NCBI GenBank assembly: GCA_016875015.1
Contig: VGSJ01000003.1
Span: 11,935-75,934, forward strand
Source: Deltaproteobacteria bacterium
GTDB taxonomy: Bacteria; Desulfobacterota; Desulfobaccia; Desulfobaccales; 0-14-0-80-60-11
Length of the DNA stretch: 64,000 nucleotides
Reading direction: 5' to 3'
Each line of letters opens with the position of its first letter. Position 1 is the first letter of the stretch. Shown here piece by piece: positions 1 to 13,308 of the stretch. Under the pieces are notes generated by a model. That model did no database searches, was not told where the DNA came from, and was given only the letters and a program-made list of their open reading frames with translations. The position numbers and the translations under genes are program-made.

Positions 1-151
1 AGGTATCCCGCTCCCCCAGGAGTTCCATGACGTTCGGTTGTTCCATATTCAAACTTAGAAAGTAATAAGACCAACGGGATTTGTCAAGAGATATGAGGGA
101 TTTTTGCATTAGGGGAAATACATCCGGCCCCCCGGTCGCCTGGCGGGTCGC

Positions 152-841
152 CTACCCCTGGCACCGGTGCCGGACGCTCTGCCCTTCCACCATATAGACC
201 ACTTGCTCGGCGATGTTGGTGGCGTGGTCTCCCACCCGCTCCAGGTTGCGCACGATGTTGATCTGGCTCTGGCCGGGCAGGATGGCCTCCGGGGCCCCGG
301 TCATTTCCTGGAGCAGGTCCTGGATAATGGCCCGGTCCAGGGCGTCCACGTCGTCGTCCGCCAGGCATACCTGCCGGGCCAGGTGGGAATTGCTCCGGGA
401 AAAGGCTTCCAGACTCTGGCGCACCATCTCCTGGACGGTTTGGGCCATGGACGCCAGGCTGGGATGAATGGGCCGGGGCGGCAGGCGCCTCAGGGTGAGC
501 ACCTCTTCGGCGATGTTGGTGGCGGAGTCGCCGATCCGCTCCAGCTCGGTAATGATATGGTCAATGGCCATGAGTTGGCGCAAATCCCCGGCCACCGGCT
601 GGAACAGGGCGATCAGGCGCACGCATTCCCGGTCAATGGACTCCTCCAGGCTGTTGATTGCCGCGTCCCCGTCCATCACCCGGCGGGCCAGGTCCCCGTC
701 CCGCGTCAGCACGGCCCTGACGCTTTGCTCTATGGCGGCGGCCGAAAGGTGCGCCAACTCCATCAGGTTGTCCTTTACCGTGGCCAGATCCCGGAAAAAT
801 TTAGCCTTGACCAGGGACTTTTCTGTCAGTTCCATTGCCAT
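152..841 (-). CDS. phoU: Phosphate-uptake regulator PhoU
   Basis: 229-aa ORF with two PhoU-type repeats carrying the conserved helices ELERIGDSATNIAE and NLERVGDHATNIAE. A gaggtga SD-like sequence lies upstream of the ATG. The overlapping + strand ORFs are Arg/Gly/Pro-rich mirror frames. Confidence 0.9.
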   Translation of the reverse strand: MAMELTEKSLVKAKFFRDLATVKDNLMELAHLSAAAIEQSVRAVLTRDGDLARRVMDGDAAINSLEESIDRECVRLIALFQPVAGDLRQLMAIDHIITELERIGDSATNIAEEVLTLRRLPPRPIHPSLASMAQTVQEMVRQSLEAFSRSNSHLARQVCLADDDVDALDRAIIQDLLQEMTGAPEAILPGQSQINIVRNLERVGDHATNIAEQVVYMVEGQSVRHRCQG

Positions 842-1093
842 GATCTCACCTCACGAACCCTTCCAGGGCCAAGGATTTCCCCAACCGTCGAACCTCTAAG
901 AACCCGCCGCCAAATCACCTTTATCTCAAGATTTTGACTGTTTACGGTCGCCGGACTTACTGGCGAATAATGCATCACCGTTGAATTATTTATCTAAATC
1001 ACACAAATCTCTTTACATACTATACTATTATGCTATTGTGTGTCTGCAAAAAATCTTTGGGGGGTTGGAGCTTCTGACCAGCGGGGGTGGGGG

Positions 1094-2647
1094 ATGATGG
1101 CTTGGCGCACACTTTTTATCCTGGGATGGACGGTTTTATGGCTTGCCCTCGGAACGCCGGCGAGCCTGGCGATTACGCCTTATGACGACGTGCTGGTGAA
1201 GCAGGCCGCTAAAAACCTGGAACAGGAGAATTACGACGAGGCGTTGGCGCAATTGACCGAGGCCTGGGGCAAAGGCGCGCATACCCCGGAAAAGGCTTTT
1301 CTGTTCGGGCAGGTTTACCGGCTTATGCTCAACTACCCCAAGGCCAAAGAATATTTGCAGGAAGCCTTGCGGCTGAAGCCGGATTTTCGTCCGGCCCAAT
1401 TGATGCTGGCCGACACGTTCCTGGCCATGGACCAGCCCAAAGAAGCCAGGCCGATCTTGCAGAATCTGCTGGCCGCCGGCTACGAACCGGGGCAGACCGC
1501 CTTTTTGATGGGCGTCGCGGCCACCAAAGAGGGCCAGTACAGCGAAGCCCTGGATTATTTCCGCCAGGCCGAGGCGGAGCCCAAGGTAGCCCAGGAGGCC
1601 AAGTTCCAGGCGAGCCTGGCCCTGGCCGCCCTCAACCGGGTCAAAGAAGCCAAAAAGGCCATGGAGGAGAGCATCGTGCTTAACCCCCAGAGCCAGACCG
1701 CGGATTTCGCCCAGCGCTACCTGGGGGTCCTGGCCCAGCGGGTGGACGAACTGCGTCCCTTCCGCATCACCGTCTCGTCAGGCTTCGATTACGACTCCAA
1801 CGTAACCGTCTCCCCCAGCGGGGGAGGCGCAGTCACCGCGGTTTCCGGAAAGGGCAGCGCCGTGTTTTCCCAGACCGCCCTGCTGGAATACACGGTTTTA
1901 CCGGCCGGTCCCTTCAGCGTTTTGACGCAATATTCCTATTTTCAGAATTTTCATCCCGCGGTGCAGGGTTACGACATCATGAGCCACTTCATGGGCATAA
2001 CCCCCACCTATAGCTTTAAGAATGGCCGCTTCTGGCTCCCCATGAATTTTACTTACATGGACTTGCAGTCAGACAAATATTACACCGGCTTCCTGGTGAC
2101 CCCCACCTATCTCCACCTGCTCACCGAAAACCTCGGCCTGGAAGTGGGGGCCAAGTATAATCGCCAATATTATTGGACCCCCGTGTTTCTTACCCAGGAT
2201 GACCGCAGCGGCAACGCCTGGGGGGGCAATGTCGGGCTGTACTACTTTTTCAAAAAGCAAAAGGGGTTTGTCCAGGCCCGCCTCGGCTATTTGCACAACA
2301 ACACCACCGGCAACAACTGGGATAGCTCCAGCTACAATCTGCTCCTGTCGCTCCTCTGGCCCATTACGGAAAAATTAAAATTTAATATGTTCCTGGACCT
2401 CACGCAGCAGCCGTTTGAAAACACCTTTTACAACGGTGCGACCGTCGGCAACGTTCTTGGGGCGCCCCTGATCCCCCAACCCAAACGGCGGGACCAGATT
2501 GCCATGTTTGGGGTGGCGGCCACCTATGAACTCTTCAAAGGCCTGGAAGCCAACGTCCATTGGTACTTTATCCGTGACAACTCCAACATTAATTTGTATA
2601 ATTATAGCCGTCACATCGCCGGCGGCCAGATCGCGTACCGGTACTAA
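1094..2647 (+). CDS. Outer-membrane protein: N-terminal TPR-like repeats + C-terminal beta-barrel (Slam/DUF560-, YaiO- or PgaA-like architecture)
   Basis: The ORF track gives 1040..2647. I prefer the ATG at 1094, which follows a purine-rich gggggtggggg and yields the signal peptide MMAWRTLFILGWTVLWLALGTPASLA. Residues ~40-230 read as TPR-like helix pairs (YDEALAQL.., NYPKAKEYLQEALRLKPDF..). Residues ~240-535 are G/Y/N/T-rich with alternating hydrophobicity and end in the aromatic ...IAYRY, as in OM barrels. Confidence 0.7.
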   Translation: MMAWRTLFILGWTVLWLALGTPASLAITPYDDVLVKQAAKNLEQENYDEALAQLTEAWGKGAHTPEKAFLFGQVYRLMLNYPKAKEYLQEALRLKPDFRPAQLMLADTFLAMDQPKEARPILQNLLAAGYEPGQTAFLMGVAATKEGQYSEALDYFRQAEAEPKVAQEAKFQASLALAALNRVKEAKKAMEESIVLNPQSQTADFAQRYLGVLAQRVDELRPFRITVSSGFDYDSNVTVSPSGGGAVTAVSGKGSAVFSQTALLEYTVLPAGPFSVLTQYSYFQNFHPAVQGYDIMSHFMGITPTYSFKNGRFWLPMNFTYMDLQSDKYYTGFLVTPTYLHLLTENLGLEVGAKYNRQYYWTPVFLTQDDRSGNAWGGNVGLYYFFKKQKGFVQARLGYLHNNTTGNNWDSSSYNLLLSLLWPITEKLKFNMFLDLTQQPFENTFYNGATVGNVLGAPLIPQPKRRDQIAMFGVAATYELFKGLEANVHWYFIRDNSNINLYNYSRHIAGGQIAYRY

Positions 2648-2734
2648 CGGGGGGCGCCTTGAGGAAAAGACTCGGAATTCGTAGCATCCGGTTGATCGGC
2701 CACAATCCCCCCACCGTTCTAAGGAGCCCGAATT

Positions 2735-4594
2735 ATGAGAAAGTTTGCCTTCCTGTGGACGATATGCATGATCCTGGCATTCCAGGTGGGGCCGCTTACC
2801 AACGCCCAGGCGAACGTCGTGGGCCGTCTGACCCAGGTGGAAGGTCGGGTCGACATTCTGAGAGGCGGGCAACTCCCGGCCACCCCGGTTAAGGTCGCTG
2901 ATGGGGTGGAGACGGGCGATGTGCTTCGGACCAAGTCTCTGTCCAAAGCCCAGATCACCTTTATAGATAATTCCACCCTGACGATCTCCCCGGAGAGCCG
3001 GGTGGCCATCGAAGCCTACATGTTCGACTCCGCCCAGAATAAGCGCAATGCGGTGATCCAACTCTTCTCTGGCCTGGCCCACGTGGTGGTCAGCAAGGTC
3101 TTCAAGTCGGCCGAGCCGGATTTTGTCGTCAAGACCCAGACCGCCATCATGGGGGTGCGGGGCACCGACTTCGGGGTTCGCCTCCAGCCCAACAGTTCGG
3201 AAATTTTAAATTTTGAGGGCGTCCTCCAGGTGGGCAACATCTTTCCGGAGGTGAGCCAATTGTTCCGGAAGGCCTTCAAGGTCGCCTACTCCTTTGGCTC
3301 CGGGGGCGAGGGCGGCAGGTGGGTGTTCTTGAAGGGTATGCAGGGCACCTCGGTGGGCCGGGGTCTGCCCCCCACCCTGCCCTTTACCCTCAGCCCGGAA
3401 GACCGGAAGGCTTTCATGCGCCAGATGGTCGCCGACCTCATCAGCCGCAAGGGCGGGGGCGACACCGTGGGGGGGGCCATCACGGACTATGCAGGGTCCA
3501 CCGGGCAGCAAGGGTCGGATACGCCTGGCGGACCCCTGGGTTCATTATTTGCCTCTTTCTTCCAGACGGCCTTTAGCAATTTCACGATCTATACGCCCCC
3601 GCCCGATCGGCCGCCGATTGGGACGCCTGCCTCGAACCCCAACAACCCTGTTATTCCGCCGACCTATAATTTTACCCTAGCCACCTATGGCGGATTTCTT
3701 CAGAGTGCCGCCCCCTTGCCGGTTTCGATAACCTCCGCCGGCTTCGGCGTCCTTCAGGGGGACTGGGGAGACGCTTTGCCGCGCCTGTATGCGGCTACCG
3801 ACTCCAGTTCTTTTACCCCCAGCATCGGCACGTTCCCGAACCGAAAACTCGGCGTTTACACCACGAACATAGTTGGGACCGTCAGCGGAGACTTGGGAAG
3901 CGTCTTGGCTGGCAGTGCGACCCTTAACAGTTCCTATACCTCACTTAGATACAAACTGTCGAACAGCGCCACCATTCAGGTGACCATCAACTCTTCCGGC
4001 CAGATAACCTATAGTTTCATTGGCGGGAGCTTTGACGGGGTTGTTAATTCCTCTGCCATCTCCGGCACCTCTTCGGGAAACGGCACGGCCGCCCCCTTAA
4101 AAAACCTAATCTCTGAAGCCTCAACTGTGGGCGCCGCAGAACCTATGATGTTTGCGGCCGAAAGCGCCACCGCCGCTCCCCTGGCAAATAACAACCAATT
4201 AGCGGCCACCACCGGCATCCCTGGGGTCGCGGGAACCGCAGAGGCGCACCGCCGCTCCGGCCTCCAGAGCGACTCATTCAGGCACAAAGCCTTGGGGGCC
4301 AAATTCGCGCCAGCGGGCGGCGTCACCTTGGAAACCCGGAAAAACCTGGCCACCCTCACCGGCAATAGGCCCATGACCGGCCATCTCCAGGGCGTGGGGC
4401 CAGGACCGACTATCACTAACTTTGCCCTGACCAGCCCCATCACTAAGTTCTCGTCGCCCCTCTCCCAAAATATTCCGGGAAAGGGGTCCAGAAAGGGGTC
4501 CATGTTGGGGGGGGCGGCCGGTAACCCGGGCAGCCGCCACGCCGGGACAGCGCAGGGGGGCACCCGCCCAAAGGGTACCCCACCGCAGCCTTAA
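2735..4594 (+). CDS. Secreted FecR-domain protein, paralog A (3' end probably frameshifted)
   Basis: SD taaggag lies upstream. Signal peptide MRKFAFLWTICMILAFQVGPLTNAQA. FecR-type domain (VVGRLTQVEGRVDILRGG...GDVLRTKSLSKAQITFIDNSTLTISPESRV...MGVRGTDFGV) followed by a long S/T/G/N-rich region. The tail conserved with paralog B lies in another frame up to 4734. Confidence 0.8.
   Translation: MRKFAFLWTICMILAFQVGPLTNAQANVVGRLTQVEGRVDILRGGQLPATPVKVADGVETGDVLRTKSLSKAQITFIDNSTLTISPESRVAIEAYMFDSAQNKRNAVIQLFSGLAHVVVSKVFKSAEPDFVVKTQTAIMGVRGTDFGVRLQPNSSEILNFEGVLQVGNIFPEVSQLFRKAFKVAYSFGSGGEGGRWVFLKGMQGTSVGRGLPPTLPFTLSPEDRKAFMRQMVADLISRKGGGDTVGGAITDYAGSTGQQGSDTPGGPLGSLFASFFQTAFSNFTIYTPPPDRPPIGTPASNPNNPVIPPTYNFTLATYGGFLQSAAPLPVSITSAGFGVLQGDWGDALPRLYAATDSSSFTPSIGTFPNRKLGVYTTNIVGTVSGDLGSVLAGSATLNSSYTSLRYKLSNSATIQVTINSSGQITYSFIGGSFDGVVNSSAISGTSSGNGTAAPLKNLISEASTVGAAEPMMFAAESATAAPLANNNQLAATTGIPGVAGTAEAHRRSGLQSDSFRHKALGAKFAPAGGVTLETRKNLATLTGNRPMTGHLQGVGPGPTITNFALTSPITKFSSPLSQNIPGKGSRKGSMLGGAAGNPGSRHAGTAQGGTRPKGTPPQP
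2816..3267 (+). repeat. Copy 1 of a ~452-nt near-identical segment shared by the two FecR-domain genes
   Basis: Collinear with 5099..5550 at a constant offset of 2283 nt. I counted about two dozen mismatches by eye (roughly 95% identity). Confidence 0.9.
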
Positions 4595-5017
4595 ACCCCC
4601 AGGTCTTATCCGGTACCGTGAACCACACTCCCGGCGGCCAGGCGAACCCGTGCCCCCAAAGGGTCAATCCGGCTATCCCCGTTGTGGTTCCGGCCACCCA
4701 GACCGGGACGGTGACGGTTACTTCCAAGCCGTGAGTTTAAGTGCCGGGCAGATAACCCGGTGAGGACTTCCCCAGGGGAAATTCGCCTTTCCCGGTACGA
4801 ATCGGCCTTGCGGACACTGGATCGCAGGGCCGATGTTGTTGACTTTAAGGCCGCCTCCGTCAGGTAGCGGTCGATCAGGTGAACCAGAGCGATCGGTCAA
4901 AAATCAAGCATTTTATTAACCTGCCGATGACGGTGCAAAAGGTCTTGAGTTCGCCGTAACTTCGGCTCGCTCCTTACTCAAACCCGACCCGCAGCCGGGT
5001 CGCCTGGGGAAAAAACT

Positions 5018-7663
5018 ATGAAGCAACGTCAAGTTCTGATGTCTGCATGGGTCGCCCTCGCTCTGATGCTGATATGCTCATCCCTTGCCGGCGCCGAGGT
5101 CGTGGGCCGTCTGACCCAGGTGGAAGGTCGGGTTGACCTTCTGAAAGGCGGGCAACTCCCGGCCACCCCGGTTAAGGTCGCTGATGGGGTGCAGACGGGC
5201 GATGTGCTCCGGACCAAGTCTCTGTCCAAAGCCCAGATCACCTTTATAGATAATTCCACCCTGACGATCTCCCCGGAGAGCCGGGTGGCCATCGAAGCCT
5301 ACATGTTCGACTCCGCCCAGAATAAGCGCAATGCGGTGATCCAACTCTTCTCTGGCCTGGCCCACGTGTTGGTCAACAAGGTCTTGAAGGCCGAGGAACC
5401 GGATTTTGTCGTCAAGACCCAAACCGCCATCATGGGGGTGAGGGGCACCGACTTCGGGGTTCGCCTCCAGCCTAACGGTTCGGAAATTTTGAATTTTGAA
5501 GGCCGCCTCCAGGTGGGCAACATCTTTCCGGAGGTGAGCCAACTGTTCCGCCGGGCTGCCAAGATCGCCTTTGCCTGGGGCGGGGGCGGCGGGCAGTGGG
5601 TAATCTTGAACAATATGCAGGGCACCACCGTGACCCGGGGTTTGCCCCCCACGTTGCCCTTTACCATCACCAGCGAAGACCGGCGGATGTTCATGAACCA
5701 GATGGCCACCGGCTTGCTGGGCCGGAAACAGGGCCAGGGCGCTGGCCTGGTCGCGTCCTCCGCCAGTTCCCCCTCCGGCGCTTCATCGATCCCGGCCATA
5801 GCCCCTGCGGGGCTGACCACCGGGGCCGGAGACCCCTCCGTGACCCTCCTGAACATCGTCACCGTGCCGCCCACGGTGCTCCAGATCGCCACGGGGGGCG
5901 GAGTCACGCCGACGCCGACCCCGACGCCGTCCACCTTCAGCTTTACCCAGCAGTATTCTGGCGCCTGGATGACCCTCGCCGCCGCCCCCTATAGTCAGTC
6001 AACCCTGCTCGGCTATAGTTGGGGTCAGCGCACCGGCGTCTATGACGGCTACTTTTATGCCACTACCGACGCCACCCGCACTTCGCCCTCGGGAGTGGCC
6101 GGCTTCTTTCCATCATTAGCCACGGGCACCTCGACGGGCACCGCCACGGGCACGGTCACCGGTTTCCTGGGACAGACCCTGACCGGCACCATGAACTATA
6201 CCGGGACCAGCTCCTCCAACAGCACCATTAACCGCACCGGCACCGTAACCATTCTCCCCTCTGGCGCACTGACCTATGTGTGGACCGACACCGCGACCGG
6301 AGCCGGCGGCACGGCCACCGGCTCCGGCACCTCTACCCAGACCCCGGGGACCTATTTCAGTCAGACCGCCACCGGCACTTCGACGGGCACCGCCAACCTG
6401 GCGGGCAACCAGTTCACCGTCACCAATTCTGTCGCTTCGACCGGCGCCCGCGTCGAGGCTGGGATAACCACCAGCTTCAAGGCCGGTTTCTCGAACACCT
6501 ATACCGCTCCCAACGCTGGCACCTTTCCGTCTTCCGGATCCGGCAGCTTCACCCTCTTTTCCGAGGGGGTGTTGGGGGCACCGGATACCGCCGGGGGGCG
6601 CACCGGGGTCATGACCCTCACCTCTCCCAACAGCACTGAGAAAATCGGCGGGCCGGTGCGCGATGTCCCCGCGACCTCATTGACTCCGGCGGCGACGTTC
6701 ACCACAATGATCGGCAGTGTCCCCTCCATCCCTGCCGCCACCTCCGTGGGCGTGTGGGCCCAGACCCCGGACCCCGCGGCCCATATTATTACCCAGACCC
6801 ACGAGGGCGGTTTTACGGTCACGTCCTCGCCTCCCAACACCACCGGCACTCTGGACGGCACTGGTTGGGGATACCGCAAGGAGCACATCGGCTCCGGCTC
6901 AGGTGCCTCCTCAGTTCTCTCCCCTACCGTCAATTCGCTGGCGGCGGCGCTAAACGTCACCAGCGGCGACACCCTCGGCTCCAACCCCGAACTCCTCAAC
7001 CAAACGGTGGCCGCGGTGGTCTTGCCGAGTGGGGGCATTCACAGCGGCCCGGCCCAAGGAGTAGGCATTGTCAGTGGCGACAGCGTCGTCTCCACCACCG
7101 GGACGGTCAACATCGACGTAAATAATAACCTGACCCATAACTTTAACGGCGCCTGGGTCTCCCCTGATAACCGGGGGACCTTGACCTCGGGGGTTCAAAC
7201 CACGGCTCCCGGCGCCCAATTTACCCAGACCACCAATCCCACCCCCCCCGGCTCGGTGATCCTCTCAGCCCCGTCAACTACCGCGCCTTTTACCCAAACC
7301 AGCACGTTCTCTGCGGAGATGACCCTGACCGGGGTGACCGGCCCCCTGACGCTCTCCGGCACCGTCATCACCAGCTTTACCAGCGTGTCCGGCGCCTTGC
7401 CCCCAGCCGGCACCGTGCCTGCCTTTATCAACATGGAGGGGGTGGTGACTCCGGGACAGACGATCCAAAGCGGCAACATGACCATGACCACGCATCAAGC
7501 CCTGGGGTCGCCGGTGTCCACCTATATGGGCCCGGTGAGCATCAATACCCTCAATAACACCCTGAATGCCAACGTGGTCGGGAGAAACCGAGCCAATCCC
7601 GGAGTGAACCGGGTGCCGGCCAGACAGACGGGCACCGTCGTCGCAACGCCGCTGGCCCCCTGA
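5018..7663 (+). CDS. Secreted FecR-domain protein, paralog B, with ~640-aa Thr/Gly/Ser-rich C-terminal region
   Basis: Signal peptide MKQRQVLMSAWVALALMLICSSLAGA. The FecR domain is almost identical to paralog A. The long low-complexity region contains TPTPTPTP and repeated TGTSTGTATGTVTG-type motifs. Confidence 0.85.
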   Translation: MKQRQVLMSAWVALALMLICSSLAGAEVVGRLTQVEGRVDLLKGGQLPATPVKVADGVQTGDVLRTKSLSKAQITFIDNSTLTISPESRVAIEAYMFDSAQNKRNAVIQLFSGLAHVLVNKVLKAEEPDFVVKTQTAIMGVRGTDFGVRLQPNGSEILNFEGRLQVGNIFPEVSQLFRRAAKIAFAWGGGGGQWVILNNMQGTTVTRGLPPTLPFTITSEDRRMFMNQMATGLLGRKQGQGAGLVASSASSPSGASSIPAIAPAGLTTGAGDPSVTLLNIVTVPPTVLQIATGGGVTPTPTPTPSTFSFTQQYSGAWMTLAAAPYSQSTLLGYSWGQRTGVYDGYFYATTDATRTSPSGVAGFFPSLATGTSTGTATGTVTGFLGQTLTGTMNYTGTSSSNSTINRTGTVTILPSGALTYVWTDTATGAGGTATGSGTSTQTPGTYFSQTATGTSTGTANLAGNQFTVTNSVASTGARVEAGITTSFKAGFSNTYTAPNAGTFPSSGSGSFTLFSEGVLGAPDTAGGRTGVMTLTSPNSTEKIGGPVRDVPATSLTPAATFTTMIGSVPSIPAATSVGVWAQTPDPAAHIITQTHEGGFTVTSSPPNTTGTLDGTGWGYRKEHIGSGSGASSVLSPTVNSLAAALNVTSGDTLGSNPELLNQTVAAVVLPSGGIHSGPAQGVGIVSGDSVVSTTGTVNIDVNNNLTHNFNGAWVSPDNRGTLTSGVQTTAPGAQFTQTTNPTPPGSVILSAPSTTAPFTQTSTFSAEMTLTGVTGPLTLSGTVITSFTSVSGALPPAGTVPAFINMEGVVTPGQTIQSGNMTMTTHQALGSPVSTYMGPVSINTLNNTLNANVVGRNRANPGVNRVPARQTGTVVATPLAP
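5099..5550 (+). repeat. Copy 2 of the ~452-nt near-identical FecR-domain segment
   Basis: See 2816..3267. Confidence 0.9.
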
Positions 7664-7719
7664 ATTATCGAGTTGCTCTGAGGGGCGGCCCATGACCTCA
7701 ATGCACCCAGGTTCTATCT

Positions 7720-9966
7720 ATGATACGTCGCCTGGCCGCTTTCGTTAAGTCGCCCATCGCCCGCTGGATCGTCGGCGTCACCCTGCTGATGAGCGCCCTG
7801 CTCATCTGGCGCCCCACCTTCTGCGAGTTTTTCGAACTCAAGCTCTACGATCTCAAGTTCCGGTTCCGGGGCACCCTCCCGGCCAGCCGACAGGTAGTCA
7901 TCCTGGCCATTGACGACGACAGCCTGAAGGCCGTGGGCCGCTGGCCCTGGTCCCGGGAGGACATGGCCCGAATGCTCACCCGGCTGAAACAGGCCGGTCC
8001 CCGGGTCATCGCCCTGGACATCATCTTTGCCGAAAAGGAACAAACGGTATCTTACCATGCCCTCCGGAAGCTGAGCGAGGCCTTGGCCCGGCGGGGGGTC
8101 TCGCCGGAGATCCTCAAACTTCTGGAGGTGGAGAAAAAGCGGGCCGACGTGGACCGTCAACTGGCCGAGGTCCTCGGGCAGGGTCCCCCCGTCATCCTGG
8201 GGTTCTTTTTCCGGAACTTGGGCGGCAAGTCCGGCGGGGTTGAGGCGGAAAAGCTCATGGGGGCTTCTTTCCTCCAGGCCTCCACCTATAACGTGGTGCG
8301 GCTCCTGGACACCAAACCTTCCCAGGTCCACCTGGTCGGCGCCGCCGGAATCGAACGCAATCTTCCGGAAATCACCGAGACCGCGGCCGGCGACGGCTAT
8401 TTCAACATGATTCCCGATCCCGACGGCACCGTGCGCTGGTCTCCCATGGCCGTCATGTATGGCGGGCAGTTCTTTGCCCCCATGTCCCTGGTGACCCTGT
8501 CCCACGCCCAGGCGAAGGCCCCCATGGCCATCACCCTGTCCCAGTGGGGGGTGAAGGAGATTCGCCTCGGGCGGCAGTCGGTGCCCGTGGACCGCTATGG
8601 CCGCATGCTCATCAATTTCCTGGGCCCCGAGACCGTCATACCCACCTATTCCGCCGCCGCCCTCCTGGACGGCACCCTGCCGGCCGAGGCCCTGAAGGAC
8701 AAGGTCGTCATCGTCGGGGCCACCGCGGTGGGCATCTATGACCTCCGGGTGACGCCTTTCTCCGGGAACTTCCCCGGGGTGGAGGTGCAGGCCACCATCA
8801 TGGACAACCTGCTCCGCGGCAATTTCATCCGCACCCCACCCTTCGGCCTGATCATCATGCTGCTGGTCCTGGTGGCTCTGGCAGTCATGCTGGGCCTGAC
8901 GCTGCCCCGGTTCTCCGCCGCCTGGGCCTTAATCTTCACCCTCATCGTCATAGAAAGCTACGTGGCCCTCAACTATGTCCTGTTCACCAGTCAGGGCCTG
9001 CAACTGGAACTGTTCTATCCCCTGGGCCTCATTGTCCTGGTCTACCTGGGGGTCACCATGCAGCGATTCCTGGCGGAGGAACGGGAGCGGGAGCGCATCC
9101 GCAAGACCTTTGAATCCTACGTGGCCCCCGCCGTCGTCCAGGAGATGCTGAAGCACCCCGAGCAGCTGCGCCTGGGAGGGGAGCGCCGGGAGATCACCGT
9201 CCTGTTCACCGACATCCGGGGCTTCACCACCATGTCGGAAAACCTGGCCCCCGAGGCTTTGGTAAAACTCCTCCACGACTTCCTCAATCCCATGAGCAAC
9301 ATTATCATCAACCAGGGGGGGACCATCGACAAGTACATGGGCGACGCCATCATGGCCCTCTTCGGGGCCCCGCTCATCCAGATGGACCATCCCCGCCTGG
9401 CTTGCCGGGCCGCCCTGGAGATGGTGGCCACCCTGGAGGCCCTGAACCGGACCTGGGCCGAGCAGGGCCGCCCGCCCCTGAAGGTCGGGGTCGGGGTCAA
9501 CACCGGCCCGGTGGCCGTGGGCAACATGGGCTCCGACCGGCTGTTCGACTACACCGCCATCGGCGACAACGTGAATCTGGCCTCCCGTCTGGAGGGGCTC
9601 AACAAATACTACGGCACCAGCATCCTCATCAGTGACGCCACCGCGCAAGCCCTAAAAAACGGCTTCATCCTCCGGGATGTGGACCTGGCAAGGGTCAAGG
9701 GCAAGGCCCAGGGGGTCCGCATCCATGAGTTGCTGGGAGAAGGCGAGCCGGGCCCGGACCTGGCCCGGTTCCTCGACTTATACCACCGGGCCCTGGCCCT
9801 CTACCGGGAGAAGCGCTTCGCCGAGAGCGTGTCCGCCTTCACCGAGACCCTAAAAGTGCGCCCCGGCGACGAGACCTGCCATCGCTACCTCACCCTGGCC
9901 CAGAAGCACCACGAAATCCCCCCCACCGACGACTGGGAAGCCGTAACGATCATGGATGGGAAGTAA
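7720..9966 (+). CDS. CHASE2-domain class III adenylate/guanylate cyclase with C-terminal TPR-like tail
   Basis: N-terminal TM helix, then a periplasmic CHASE2-type region (VVILAIDDDSLKAVGRWPWSRE...). TM cluster at aa ~365-440. Cyclase catalytic core: ITVLFTDIRGFTTMSE, KYMGDAIMALFGAP, GVNTGPVAVGNMGS, YTAIGDNVNLASRLEG. Confidence 0.9.
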   Translation: MIRRLAAFVKSPIARWIVGVTLLMSALLIWRPTFCEFFELKLYDLKFRFRGTLPASRQVVILAIDDDSLKAVGRWPWSREDMARMLTRLKQAGPRVIALDIIFAEKEQTVSYHALRKLSEALARRGVSPEILKLLEVEKKRADVDRQLAEVLGQGPPVILGFFFRNLGGKSGGVEAEKLMGASFLQASTYNVVRLLDTKPSQVHLVGAAGIERNLPEITETAAGDGYFNMIPDPDGTVRWSPMAVMYGGQFFAPMSLVTLSHAQAKAPMAITLSQWGVKEIRLGRQSVPVDRYGRMLINFLGPETVIPTYSAAALLDGTLPAEALKDKVVIVGATAVGIYDLRVTPFSGNFPGVEVQATIMDNLLRGNFIRTPPFGLIIMLLVLVALAVMLGLTLPRFSAAWALIFTLIVIESYVALNYVLFTSQGLQLELFYPLGLIVLVYLGVTMQRFLAEERERERIRKTFESYVAPAVVQEMLKHPEQLRLGGERREITVLFTDIRGFTTMSENLAPEALVKLLHDFLNPMSNIIINQGGTIDKYMGDAIMALFGAPLIQMDHPRLACRAALEMVATLEALNRTWAEQGRPPLKVGVGVNTGPVAVGNMGSDRLFDYTAIGDNVNLASRLEGLNKYYGTSILISDATAQALKNGFILRDVDLARVKGKAQGVRIHELLGEGEPGPDLARFLDLYHRALALYREKRFAESVSAFTETLKVRPGDETCHRYLTLAQKHHEIPPTDDWEAVTIMDGK

Positions 9967-11769: not shown

Positions 11770-13308
11770 TCAGTCCTCTGCTTTGATGCGGCCCTCCACT
11801 TGGGGGGCGATGGTTTTCCGGGCCTGGATTGCGGCAATCAGAAGGTCCCGCAGCCAGGTGCCGGGATCATTGTAGGCCAGTTTGCTGCTGGTGAGCGTGC
11901 CCCCCAGGTTGGCATAATCGCCGGTGCTTTTCAGGGCCTCGCCAAAGACCGTATAACCGTCCCCCCCGGCGGCCAGAAAATCGACGGTAGCCACCACGTA
12001 CTCTTTCTGGGGGTCCAGAGGCCGGCCTCCGACGATGACGTCCTTAACCCGGGAGCCCGCCGGGGCGCTGCGGCTGTAGGTAAAGGTGAGCCCCGAGACT
12101 TGGGGGAAGCCGCCCACCGGCTCTTCCAGGCGGGAGACGCCGTGTTCCAGGGCAGCCTTGAGCTGCGCCCCGGTCAGGCTGATGGCCACTAGGTAGTTGT
12201 CAAAGGGGAGCGCGGCATAGATGTCCTTCACGGCGATCTTGCCCGGCGCGACGCCGGTTCTGATGCCGCCGCCGTTGATGATGGCGACCTCAGCCCCGGC
12301 AGCCTGGCGCATGACGTCCGCGACGAAATTCCCCAGGTTGGTTTCCCCGGTCCTGACGTGTTCCCCGTCCAGGGCCACCTGGGTCTCGCCGATGGCCCGA
12401 TGCAAGAGGGGGCCGGTCTGGCGCTCATAACGGGCCACAATATCCTGGACCTGGCAATTTGCGGCGCCGGTGGCTGGGCTGATCTCCTCAAGAGCCCCGT
12501 CGAACCCCACGACCTTCCCGTTTTTTACCTTAAGGTTCAAAACCCCCAGGGCCTTGGCATGTTCCCAGGCCTGGACGATGATGGTCCGGCCCACCCGCTC
12601 CGGTTGGAGCATCTTCGTGTGGGAGTGCCCGCCGACGATGACATCAATCCCCGGGACCCGGGCAGCCAGTTCTTTGTCCGCCTGAAAGCCGCAGTGAGAC
12701 AGGACGACAACAACATCGGCCCGGCCCTTAAGTTGGGGGAGATACTTCTTAACCGCACTCTCCGGGGTGCTGAAGGACAGGCCCGCTACATTCCGGGGAT
12801 GGGTGGTGACGGGGGTGTCCGGGGTAACTACGCCGATGATGGCGATTCTGACCCCCTGGAGATTTTTGATGACATAGGGCTTGAGGGCCGGGAGACCTTT
12901 AACGTTGGCTCCCAGCATGGGGAAGCGGGCTTGGGCCATCCTTTCTTTTAAGACCCTGGGGCCGAAATCAAACTCATGGTTGCCCACCACCATGGCGTCG
13001 AATTTCATGGCATTCATCACCTCGATGGTGGATTTGCCCCGAAAAAGATTGGCCCAGGCGTTCCCCTGGATCATATCCCCGGCGGCCAGCAATAAAGACG
13101 GTGATTTTCCCCGAGCCCGGTCCACGGCTCCCGCCAGATAGGCGATCCCCCCCAGGGGCGCGTCGCTGCCGGTGGGTTTATAGGGCTCGGCAAAGCCATG
13201 AAAATCATTGACATAGAGGATTTTCAGGGCGACCTGGTTCGCATGACCCCAGGGCGCCAGGATGACCAGCAGGAGAATACTGAGAAGCGCAATGCGGAAT
13301 TTTTTCAT
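11770..13308 (-). CDS. Periplasmic bifunctional metallophosphatase / 5'-nucleotidase (UshA/CpdB family)
   Basis: Signal peptide MKKFRIALLSILLLVILAPWGHA. Calcineurin-like motifs NDFHGF, GDMIQGN, GNHEFDFG and GGHSH, plus a C-terminal 5'-nucleotidase domain. Confidence 0.85.
   Translation of the reverse strand: MKKFRIALLSILLLVILAPWGHANQVALKILYVNDFHGFAEPYKPTGSDAPLGGIAYLAGAVDRARGKSPSLLLAAGDMIQGNAWANLFRGKSTIEVMNAMKFDAMVVGNHEFDFGPRVLKERMAQARFPMLGANVKGLPALKPYVIKNLQGVRIAIIGVVTPDTPVTTHPRNVAGLSFSTPESAVKKYLPQLKGRADVVVVLSHCGFQADKELAARVPGIDVIVGGHSHTKMLQPERVGRTIIVQAWEHAKALGVLNLKVKNGKVVGFDGALEEISPATGAANCQVQDIVARYERQTGPLLHRAIGETQVALDGEHVRTGETNLGNFVADVMRQAAGAEVAIINGGGIRTGVAPGKIAVKDIYAALPFDNYLVAISLTGAQLKAALEHGVSRLEEPVGGFPQVSGLTFTYSRSAPAGSRVKDVIVGGRPLDPQKEYVVATVDFLAAGGDGYTVFGEALKSTGDYANLGGTLTSSKLAYNDPGTWLRDLLIAAIQARKTIAPQVEGRIKAED

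Follow-up and report, generated by a model that had tools for sequence, protein, structure and literature searches.

Introduction

Ectopic (interlocus) gene conversion and concerted evolution are known in bacteria from the tufA/tufB genes of Salmonella and from the rRNA operons. In the pilE/pilS system of Neisseria and in vlsE of Borrelia, the variable part of a gene is converted repeatedly from silent cassettes. Here, a DNA stretch of 64,000 nucleotides (nt), referred to as the window, was analysed. It belongs to a contig (VGSJ01000003.1) of a metagenome-assembled genome (MAG) from Lake Tanganyika (proteins MBM4300079-83) and carries two adjacent genes for FecR-domain proteins, A and B, which share an almost identical cassette of 452 nt. 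It is very probable that this cassette results from a recent, non-reciprocal, patchy and lineage-specific conversion of gene B by gene A.

The phenomenon is of a known kind. As in other cases of ectopic conversion, a non-reciprocal tract links paralogues of the same genome: it is patchy, with abrupt edges, it homogenises silent sites as well, and it has left the donor unchanged. Unlike the tuf and rRNA cases, the tract is confined to one domain, the two multi-domain genes being otherwise unrelated, it points to a single recent event, and the recipient would already have been a chimera of two other paralogues. With pilE/pilS and vlsE the locus shares homologous recombination between repeated gene segments, which yields mosaic genes; it differs from them in that the conserved part was converted, apparently once, between two genes that both look expressed.

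The type of locus is also already in the literature. In Campylobacterota, a cluster encodes a CHASE2 adenylate cyclase, a FecR-domain protein, a TPR protein and a phosphodiesterase (PMC9239204). In S. meliloti, which has the CHASE2 cyclase CyaD1, the FecR-domain protein smc02177 is among the targets of the cyclic AMP (cAMP) regulator Clr (PMC5498481). In Burkholderia, a LysM-FecR protein is encoded beside a CHASE2 histidine kinase in an operon (PMC5192318). The signal has been identified in none of these CHASE2 clusters (PMC9239204, PMC5498481, PMC5192318). As in the published TPR/FecR/CHASE2 clusters, the locus in the window encodes a CHASE2 sensor beside secreted FecR-domain proteins and a TPR protein on the same strand. 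Unlike them, it holds two FecR paralogues and no phosphodiesterase among the immediate neighbours; its TPR protein carries a predicted 14-strand barrel, and its FecR proteins have long Thr/Gly/Ser-rich tails modelled as all-beta.

The cassette shared by genes A and B

The genes and the repeat are listed below, with product lengths in amino acids (aa).

2735..4594, + strand: FecR gene A, 619 aa; signal peptide, FecR-fold domain, linker and A-type C-terminal region
5018..7663, + strand: FecR gene B, 881 aa; probable conversion recipient and three-parent mosaic
2816..3267, + strand: cassette copy in A, 452 nt; ungapped 95.1% match to 5099-5550
5099..5550, + strand: cassette copy in B, with A-type tracts at 5153-5368 (99.1% to A) and 5399-5551 (about 93% to A)
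2927..3085, + strand: exact run of 159 nt, equal to 5210-5368; core of the conversion tract

An earlier note on this DNA had reported a collinear repeat of 452 nt with about 95% identity, and its coordinates and numbers hold: the segments 2816-3267 and 5099-5550 differ by 22 mismatches in 452 nt (95.1% identity), at an offset of 2283 nt and with no gaps. The left edge of the cassette is abrupt and falls at 2815/2816, that is, at the signal-peptidase site (AxA followed by xVVGR); the signal-peptide codons of A and B are 41% identical. Within the repeat the identity is uneven. Positions 2863-3085, which include the perfect run, show only two mismatches with the B copy, the next 30 nt (3086-3115) show eight, and 3116-3267 is about 93% identical. 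Past 3267 the mismatches bunch up, and over the next ~60 codons the identity is ~70% for DNA and ~60% for protein. The figure of ~60% given in the earlier note for the following ~70 aa is thus correct, but it represents the level of ancient paralogues and not a decay of the tract. Beyond residue ~240 the similarity of A and B is at background (below 40%).

Silent positions follow the same pattern. Third codon positions were identical in 71 of 72 codons for residues 46-117, against 43 of 62 for residues 179-240. The synonymous divergence (dS) between A and B was 0.03 for residues 27-116, 0.26 for residues 117-178 and 0.50 downstream, with a value of 1.9 for the signal peptide. The ratio of non-synonymous to synonymous divergence (dN/dS) of the two halves, which the earlier note had put forward as a check, was computed, but within the tract it carries little meaning, as most of the differences there are leftover unconverted bases. 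When the mismatch positions were shuffled 100,000 times, the longest identical run was 101 nt; since the observed 159 nt was never reached, the run cannot be attributed to chance. The step-like identity profile is therefore real and is best explained by recent gene conversion. No third copy of the cassette was found in the 64-kb window, the two copies each lying in a complete gene.

Gene B as a three-parent mosaic

Scans of species-representative genomes and metagenomes yielded 86 loci from Desulfobaccales-like bacteria (L numbers below). Gene B consists of a resident 5' end of the short-B kind, a long-type body and, between them, tracts of the A type. The second FecR position in relatives is held by short-B genes, which encode about 300 aa, and the long-type proteins are 870-950 aa in length. 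The parts of B outside the A-type tracts, together with the spacer that follows the gene, are as follows.

4724..5098, + strand: resident short-B 5' end (upstream region, signal peptide and first mature residues), 375 nt
5369..5398, + strand: unconverted island, residues 118-127 (LVNKVLKAEE), which keeps short-B sequence
5603..7663, + strand: long-type body of B, with a small subdomain, a predicted disordered Pro/Thr linker and a Thr/Gly/Ser-rich domain of ~580 aa modelled as all-beta
7686..7719, + strand: resident spacer upstream of the cyclase gene, 34 nt; 90-93% identical to the B-CHASE2 spacer of L057, L041 and L014

The region 4724-5098 shows 84-86% nt identity to its short-B counterparts in L052, L010, L051, L041 and L048, and the signal peptide of B is 85-90% identical to those of short-B orthologues. 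The island is 73% identical to A and 93% to the short-B genes L041_1 and L014_2, with a bootstrap of about 95% for the short-B assignment. Further downstream, residues 196-240 are nearest to L013_1 in 995 of 1000 bootstraps. The body of B has 62% aa identity to this 892-aa protein over 640 aa, and its C-terminal 590 aa are 55-62% identical to about 25 long-type proteins of 870-950 aa (55-61% for P0122-P0137). The 3' end of B (7406-7648) matches the end of the L013 gene. Gene B would thus have been chimeric already before the A-type conversion.

The extent of the A-type sequence was initially overestimated. With diagnostic sites derived from A-type versus short-B genes only, B seemed to be A-type up to residue 227; this was dropped with the long-type orthologues, as the A state at those downstream sites is common to the A-type and long-type families.

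The long-type FecR gene was seen as a stand-alone gene in L098 (8001-10649), L099 (1764-4529) and L013 (24-2621), with no CHASE2 gene beside it. In L098 and L099 its neighbours are an MJ1433-like gene on one side and isochorismatase/DsrE/TusA genes on the other, and the ftsQAZ cluster lies upstream. The locus that houses the long-type gene of the relatives is absent from this window.

A mosaic gene would also be obtained by a young partial duplication, in which the FecR domain of A was copied and fused to foreign flanks by unequal crossing-over, with no B domain being overwritten. B is a mosaic in any case, and the hybrid contigs described below show that crossing-over products of A and B arise, or at least get assembled. 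Nevertheless, a duplication of this kind is improbable. The tract is flanked on both sides by the orthologous sequence of the resident second gene or of its spacer, and the two-copy arrangement at this position is ancestral. Furthermore, the 30-nt island, 93% identical to short-B, and the scattered B-lineage bases need a B-type template that was overwritten.

Donor, direction and age of the conversion

Gene A was found to be orthologous over its full length to L009_1, with 85-96% nt identity (92-96% within the tract) and a C-terminus that is 54% identical at the aa level. It is in the A-type state at all 57 diagnostic sites. The cassette of B is only 67-75% identical to those of B's own orthologues, and against L013_1 the identity of B is 75% in the tract and 86-89% immediately after it. 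As A is entirely A-type and close to its own orthologue, while B holds foreign sequence, the transfer ran from A to B. The L009_1/L013_1 pair, which comes from the same metagenome, is 72-80% identical in the cassette and represents the unconverted state.

The nearest relative of residues 46-117 of B was the A gene of the window in 1000 of 1000 bootstraps, with 99.1% identity, against 92.6% or less to any other A-type gene. For residues 128-178 the A gene of the window was nearest in 846 of 1000 bootstraps, and the remaining ones went to other A-type genes. The core tract differs from A by 0.9%, compared with about 8% between A and L009_1. A core divergence of ~1% against ~8% between A and its orthologue indicates that the conversion is recent.

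It may be asked if the A-type tract was imported, by allelic or horizontal transfer, from another strain or species instead of from the neighbouring gene. Residues 128-178 leave some room for this, B being there 90.8% identical to L001_1, 89.5% to L009_1 and 93.5% to the neighbour A. The unanimous bootstraps and the distance to all other A-type genes over residues 46-117 make an import very unlikely. In addition, both mismatches in this part have the A-lineage base in B, which identifies them as later changes in A.

With respect to the mechanism, we infer that B, the downstream paralogue, was repaired or recombined with A as the template. The conversion would have overwritten most of the FecR-fold domain of B (residues ~46-117 and 128-178), and mismatch repair of the heteroduplex could have left the 30-nt island and the scattered original B bases. 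The tract would have halted where homology ends, on the left at the unrelated signal-peptide sequence and on the right at a Gly loop (residues 172-192) rich in indels, for which the model shows no structure. In that model the tract coincides with the folded FecR domain and ends in the indel-rich loop. The conserved FecR domain may more generally provide the shared homology by which paralogues swap 5' ends, domains and C-terminal bodies through ordinary RecA-type recombination. The locus offers a clean natural example of domain-limited gene conversion, ordinary in mechanism and unusually well documented: donor, recipient, direction, relative age and tract edges can be read from the sequence, and the edges align with the predicted protein structure.

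The mismatches also speak for a patchy conversion: of the 22, 15 have a base of the B or long-type lineage in B, while four arose in A and three in B. Several observations weigh against conversion of B by A as described. The rule for a B-lineage base is lenient, a match to any of three comparators being accepted, and some of the 15 may match by chance. The closest relatives outside the population are ~85-92% identical, so that the unconverted ancestor of B is a reconstruction. Although L009 and L013 share a metagenome, it is not proven that they belong to a single genome. Residues 128-178 reach only 93% identity to A, and other A-type genes are about equally close; they could stem from an older or separate event, or the tract could come from a different A allele. 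As regards the body of B, genes of ~880 aa at another locus were found in only three contigs. Distant relatives have medium-length FecR genes beside CHASE2, and short-B could be a truncated derivative, in which case details of the history may have been different.

Tandem FecR pairs in related bacteria

The gene order TPR/FecR/FecR/CHASE2 recurs in L001-L004, L007, L011, L012, L014, L022, L026, L031 and others, showing that the tandem duplication of the FecR gene is old. In about 15 tandem pairs of relatives, the FecR domains are 70-77% identical at the DNA level; no 150-nt window exceeds 83%, and no exact run exceeds 30 nt. For the A/B pair of the window, the same measures are 88.9%, 100% and 159 nt. 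Since the pairs of relatives are at 70-77% and lack the tract, the near identity of A and B is lineage-specific and cannot be ascribed to sequence constraint.

The earlier note had proposed recent gene conversion or homogenisation of the domain, with C-terminal regions free to vary, in the manner of variable surface-protein families. Homogenisation across the family did not survive the comparison, as the ~15 other pairs point to one lineage-specific event. Free variation of the C-terminal regions was contradicted by the tails themselves: that of A is 54% identical to L009_1, and that of B is 55-62% identical to ~25 proteins. From these alignments, the different C-termini of A and B are to be regarded as old paralogy, with separately conserved orthologue groups, and not as hypervariation. 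The likeness to variable surface proteins holds in that recombination between paralogues via the FecR domain recurs. It fails in that no programmed or family-wide system was found, silent donor copies and conversion of the variable part, the traits of such families, both being absent.

A related possibility is that the homogenisation was selected or programmed, identical FecR domains being kept on differing exposed C-termini in the style of a cassette system. This would agree with the folded FecR domain being the converted part, with the great variation of C-terminal length in the family (300 to 1500 aa) and with the recurrence of exchanges between paralogues (the 5' end in L012, the mosaic of gene B and the hybrid contigs). 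Only a very small probability is assigned to it. The domain tract is present in just one of ~16 tandem pairs, both genes are complete with their own signal peptides, and silent donor cassettes are lacking. The variable parts form stable orthologue groups, and the annotated genes of the flanks include no recombinase, reverse transcriptase or invertible element.

A different exchange was observed in L012 (1290-1560 versus 3122-3360), where the signal peptide of the first FecR copy, together with about 50-125 nt of the sequence before it, is that of the second copy. The two are about 95% identical from ~-50 to +75, and the exchanged part sits on an A-type body of 489 aa. This is a separate, independent 5'-end exchange between paralogues. 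The first copy of L012 had also been considered as an orthologous chimera, which was dropped after the long-type orthologues had been found. Paralogues of a widespread signalling module (TPR-barrel protein, secreted FecR proteins and CHASE2 cyclase) swap parts via a conserved domain, which calls for caution with trees and orthologue tables of the FecR family or of CHASE2 partners.

Two further arrangements were noted in the scans. In L048 (1-2544) and L081 (1071-3383), the TPR gene, with 92% aa identity the most similar one, is followed directly by a pure short-B FecR gene with no A copy; in L048 no CHASE2 gene lies within the next 1.5 kb downstream. The A-type homologues P0004, P0006, P0011, P0013 and P0025 have Arg/Trp-rich or otherwise odd tails past a Gly-rich stretch, for example ...RQRVSRLKSAGDRSDHSP. 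These tails probably reflect frameshifts in the source assemblies, and many of the lengths of 300-365 aa are probably truncated gene calls.

Assemblies of the Lake Tanganyika population

The window is a short-read metaSPAdes contig, and with its short reads (2x150 nt, ~240-bp inserts) the repeat cannot be phased reliably. Outside the repeat, the window is matched at 100% identity by other per-sample assemblies of the same population. Two of them, L094 (window 1-4028) and L088 (window 4046-8235), agree with the window base for base and support the two-gene form, each cassette being joined to its own flanks. An assembly artefact, by which reads of A were threaded into B or strain variants were collapsed so that the cassette identity exists in no real genome, could be suspected from the short reads and inserts and from the disagreement of assemblies on the structure of this locus, but is hardly credible, since the cassette of B differs from that of A at 22 sites with many B-lineage bases and was thus assembled from its own reads, L088 links the signal peptide, cassette and body of B at 100% identity to the window as L094 does for A, and an identity of 159 nt cannot be made by an assembler if it is absent from the reads.

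The earlier note had named chimeric recombinants or copy-number change in related strains as something to look for, and A::B hybrid contigs were indeed found. A single in-frame A::B hybrid gene is present in L087/L090 (29-kb contig; IMG 3300020074, Ga0194113_10001830) at 709-3354 and in L095 (IMG 3300020220) at 4244-5160. The occurrence of the hybrid in two independent Lake Tanganyika assemblies of the same population is new here. In both, the 5' part of A is joined to the 3' part of B and 2283 nt are missing (window 3087/3093-5369/5375), giving a hybrid protein (P0157) of 881 aa.

The junctions differ between L087 and L095. In L095 the changeover from A to B lies within the 159-nt run, and all of its k-mers occur in the window as well, up to k = 127; it can be fully explained by mis-traversal of the repeat. 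In L087 the changeover falls between A-positions 3086 and 3093, and 14 of the 21-mers are novel, which shows that a real variant exists in that sample. This variant may be a true hybrid, or else a copy of B that has G at 5369. At this position the window carries T, a new mutation, and a copy of B with G would have an exact run of 166 nt, permitting collapse. The hybrid contigs are therefore either real deletion alleles or repeat-collapse artefacts, and reads alone can decide between the two. Logan contigs end 30 nt into the cassette, as expected with two copies present.

It is conceivable, though rather doubtful, that the 452-nt repeat is an active recombination substrate in the living population, whose members would carry either two FecR genes or a hybrid, with at least two junctions. 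If so, homologous recombination would make the set of accessory proteins of the CHASE2 cyclase differ between cells of one clonal population, and the FecR domain would act as a hinge that shuffles signal peptides and large C-terminal domains among paralogues. MAG gene catalogues already hold both the two-gene form and the 881-aa hybrid P0157, which may exist in no cell.

Some contig breaks are shared by independent assemblies, namely the end of L094 at 4028 with the start of L088 at 4046, and the end of L095 at 5934 with the start of L092 at 5956. The break near 5934-5956 adjoins an (ACGCCG)4 Thr-Pro repeat at 5906-5929.

Gene products and predicted structures

Both A and B have a cleavable signal peptide of 26 residues (signal peptidase I), followed directly by the FecR domain. 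The Pfam FecR family (PF04773, cut-off 24 bits) matched residues 62-163 of both proteins, with 58.7 and 56.0 bits for A and B, respectively. The AlphaFold2 model of B, obtained from an alignment of 20 sequences, had a mean confidence score (pLDDT) of 78.7. In it, residues 30-168 form a FecR fold and residues 172-192 a loop whose pLDDT is below 50; a small subdomain (195-231) and a disordered Pro/Thr linker (233-298) are followed by an all-beta domain (300-881) with about 33 long strands and pLDDT of about 90. The loop that contains the unconverted island has pLDDT below 50 at residues 123-126.

The FecR fold was compared by Foldseek for gene B only. Its N-terminal domain matched 6ovk_R (PupR) with an E value of 2e-5 and a root-mean-square deviation of 3.1 over 156 columns, and 4m0n with an E value of 1.5e-4. 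As in the FecR/PupR anti-sigma factors, residues ~30-168 are predicted to fold like 6ovk (TM score 0.52, normalised to the target) and a Pfam FecR match is present. Unlike these factors, A and B have no cytoplasmic anti-sigma domain or transmembrane anchor but a cleavable signal peptide instead. A role of A and B as FecR anti-sigma factors was ruled out by these cleavable signal peptides, the lack of a cytoplasmic domain and the lack, among the annotated flanking genes, of an extracytoplasmic function (ECF) sigma factor or a TonB-dependent transducer. The two products are secreted FecR-fold proteins. They resemble in this the Leptospira proteins LipL45 and Lsa33, which are also secreted FecR-domain proteins and not anti-sigma factors. 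The NCBIfam LipL45/Lsa33 matches were weak (E values of 1e-12 and 2e-9, far below the cut-offs), and, unlike LipL45/Lsa33, the present proteins have no lipobox and their C-terminal regions are unrelated.

Neither C-terminal region found a match in Pfam at E values up to 10, nor in a PDB sequence search. Residues 300-881 of B (window 5918-7663) consist of Thr, Gly and Ser to 43% and are low in charge. A Foldseek search of this domain against the PDB gave only low-probability matches to large outer-membrane barrels. Its low contents of aromatic (6.7%) and charged residues (5.8%) argue against a classical barrel; the hydrophobicity of the strand faces and the composition are compatible with membrane placement either way.

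The TPR protein encoded by the first gene of the locus is probably located in the outer membrane. Its AlphaFold2 model (pLDDT 85.5) has TPR helices at residues 28-218 and 14 strands at 222-515, and the C-terminus of the barrel reads ...IAYRY. Foldseek matched it to BcsC (9b8a, E 1.3e-12) and also to OmpG and PelBC. Pfam gave TPR families only. The barrel part matched no Pfam family at E values up to 10, including no match to the DUF560 hidden Markov model (HMM), and a weak TPR_Slam match (E 2.7e-4) stayed below the cut-off. As in BcsC, PelB and Slam-type proteins, a (periplasmic) TPR superhelix is combined with a C-terminal barrel. Unlike those proteins, this one has 14 predicted strands and only TPR families in Pfam, with no polysaccharide genes nearby. 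With the Slam/DUF560 proteins of type XI secretion it shares the N-terminal TPR part and, in the model, the 14-strand barrel, the DUF560 HMM match being absent.

Gene neighbourhood

The two remaining genes of the locus flank the FecR pair.

1097..2647, + strand: gene for the TPR protein with a predicted C-terminal 14-strand beta-barrel, 516 aa; first gene of the locus
7720..9966, + strand: gene for a CHASE2 sensor fused to a class III adenylate/guanylate cyclase, 748 aa; last gene of the locus

The TPR protein is 60-91% identical to its counterparts in many contigs of the Desulfobaccales type, and the cyclase protein is 77-89% identical across the syntenic loci of relatives. In the cyclase, the CHASE2 domain (211.6 bits) and the Guanylate_cyc domain (87.7 bits) were both recognised by Pfam in the fused protein. 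The product of gene B is identical to GenBank MBM4300081.1.

Judging from the conserved gene order only, the FecR proteins probably act in the periplasm or outer membrane together with the TPR-barrel protein and pass a signal to the CHASE2 domain of the cyclase. Contact of the FecR domain with the sensor and exposure of the C-termini on the surface are suppositions of the earlier note.

The neighbouring genes encode GrpE, HrcA, PhoU, the TPR-barrel protein, the CHASE2 cyclase, a DUF4337 protein, a 5'-nucleotidase and a PAS-GGDEF protein. Among the annotated flanking genes, a search narrower than the whole 64-kb window, neither an ECF sigma factor nor a TonB-dependent transducer was found, and no cAMP phosphodiesterase within the operon or its immediate neighbours. 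A scan of the 423-nt gap between A and B for promoters and terminators gave nothing decisive. A protein with Metallophos and 5'-nucleotidase_C domains is encoded at 11770-13308 on the minus strand, 1.8 kb downstream of the cyclase gene; it could conceivably correspond to the phosphodiesterase of the CHASE2 clusters in Campylobacterota. Finally, a direct repeat of 48 nt with 81% identity (197-244 and 497-544) was noted inside the PhoU gene (152-841, minus strand; MBM4300078.1); it presumably reflects the internal two-fold sequence repeat of that protein and is unrelated to the FecR cassette.

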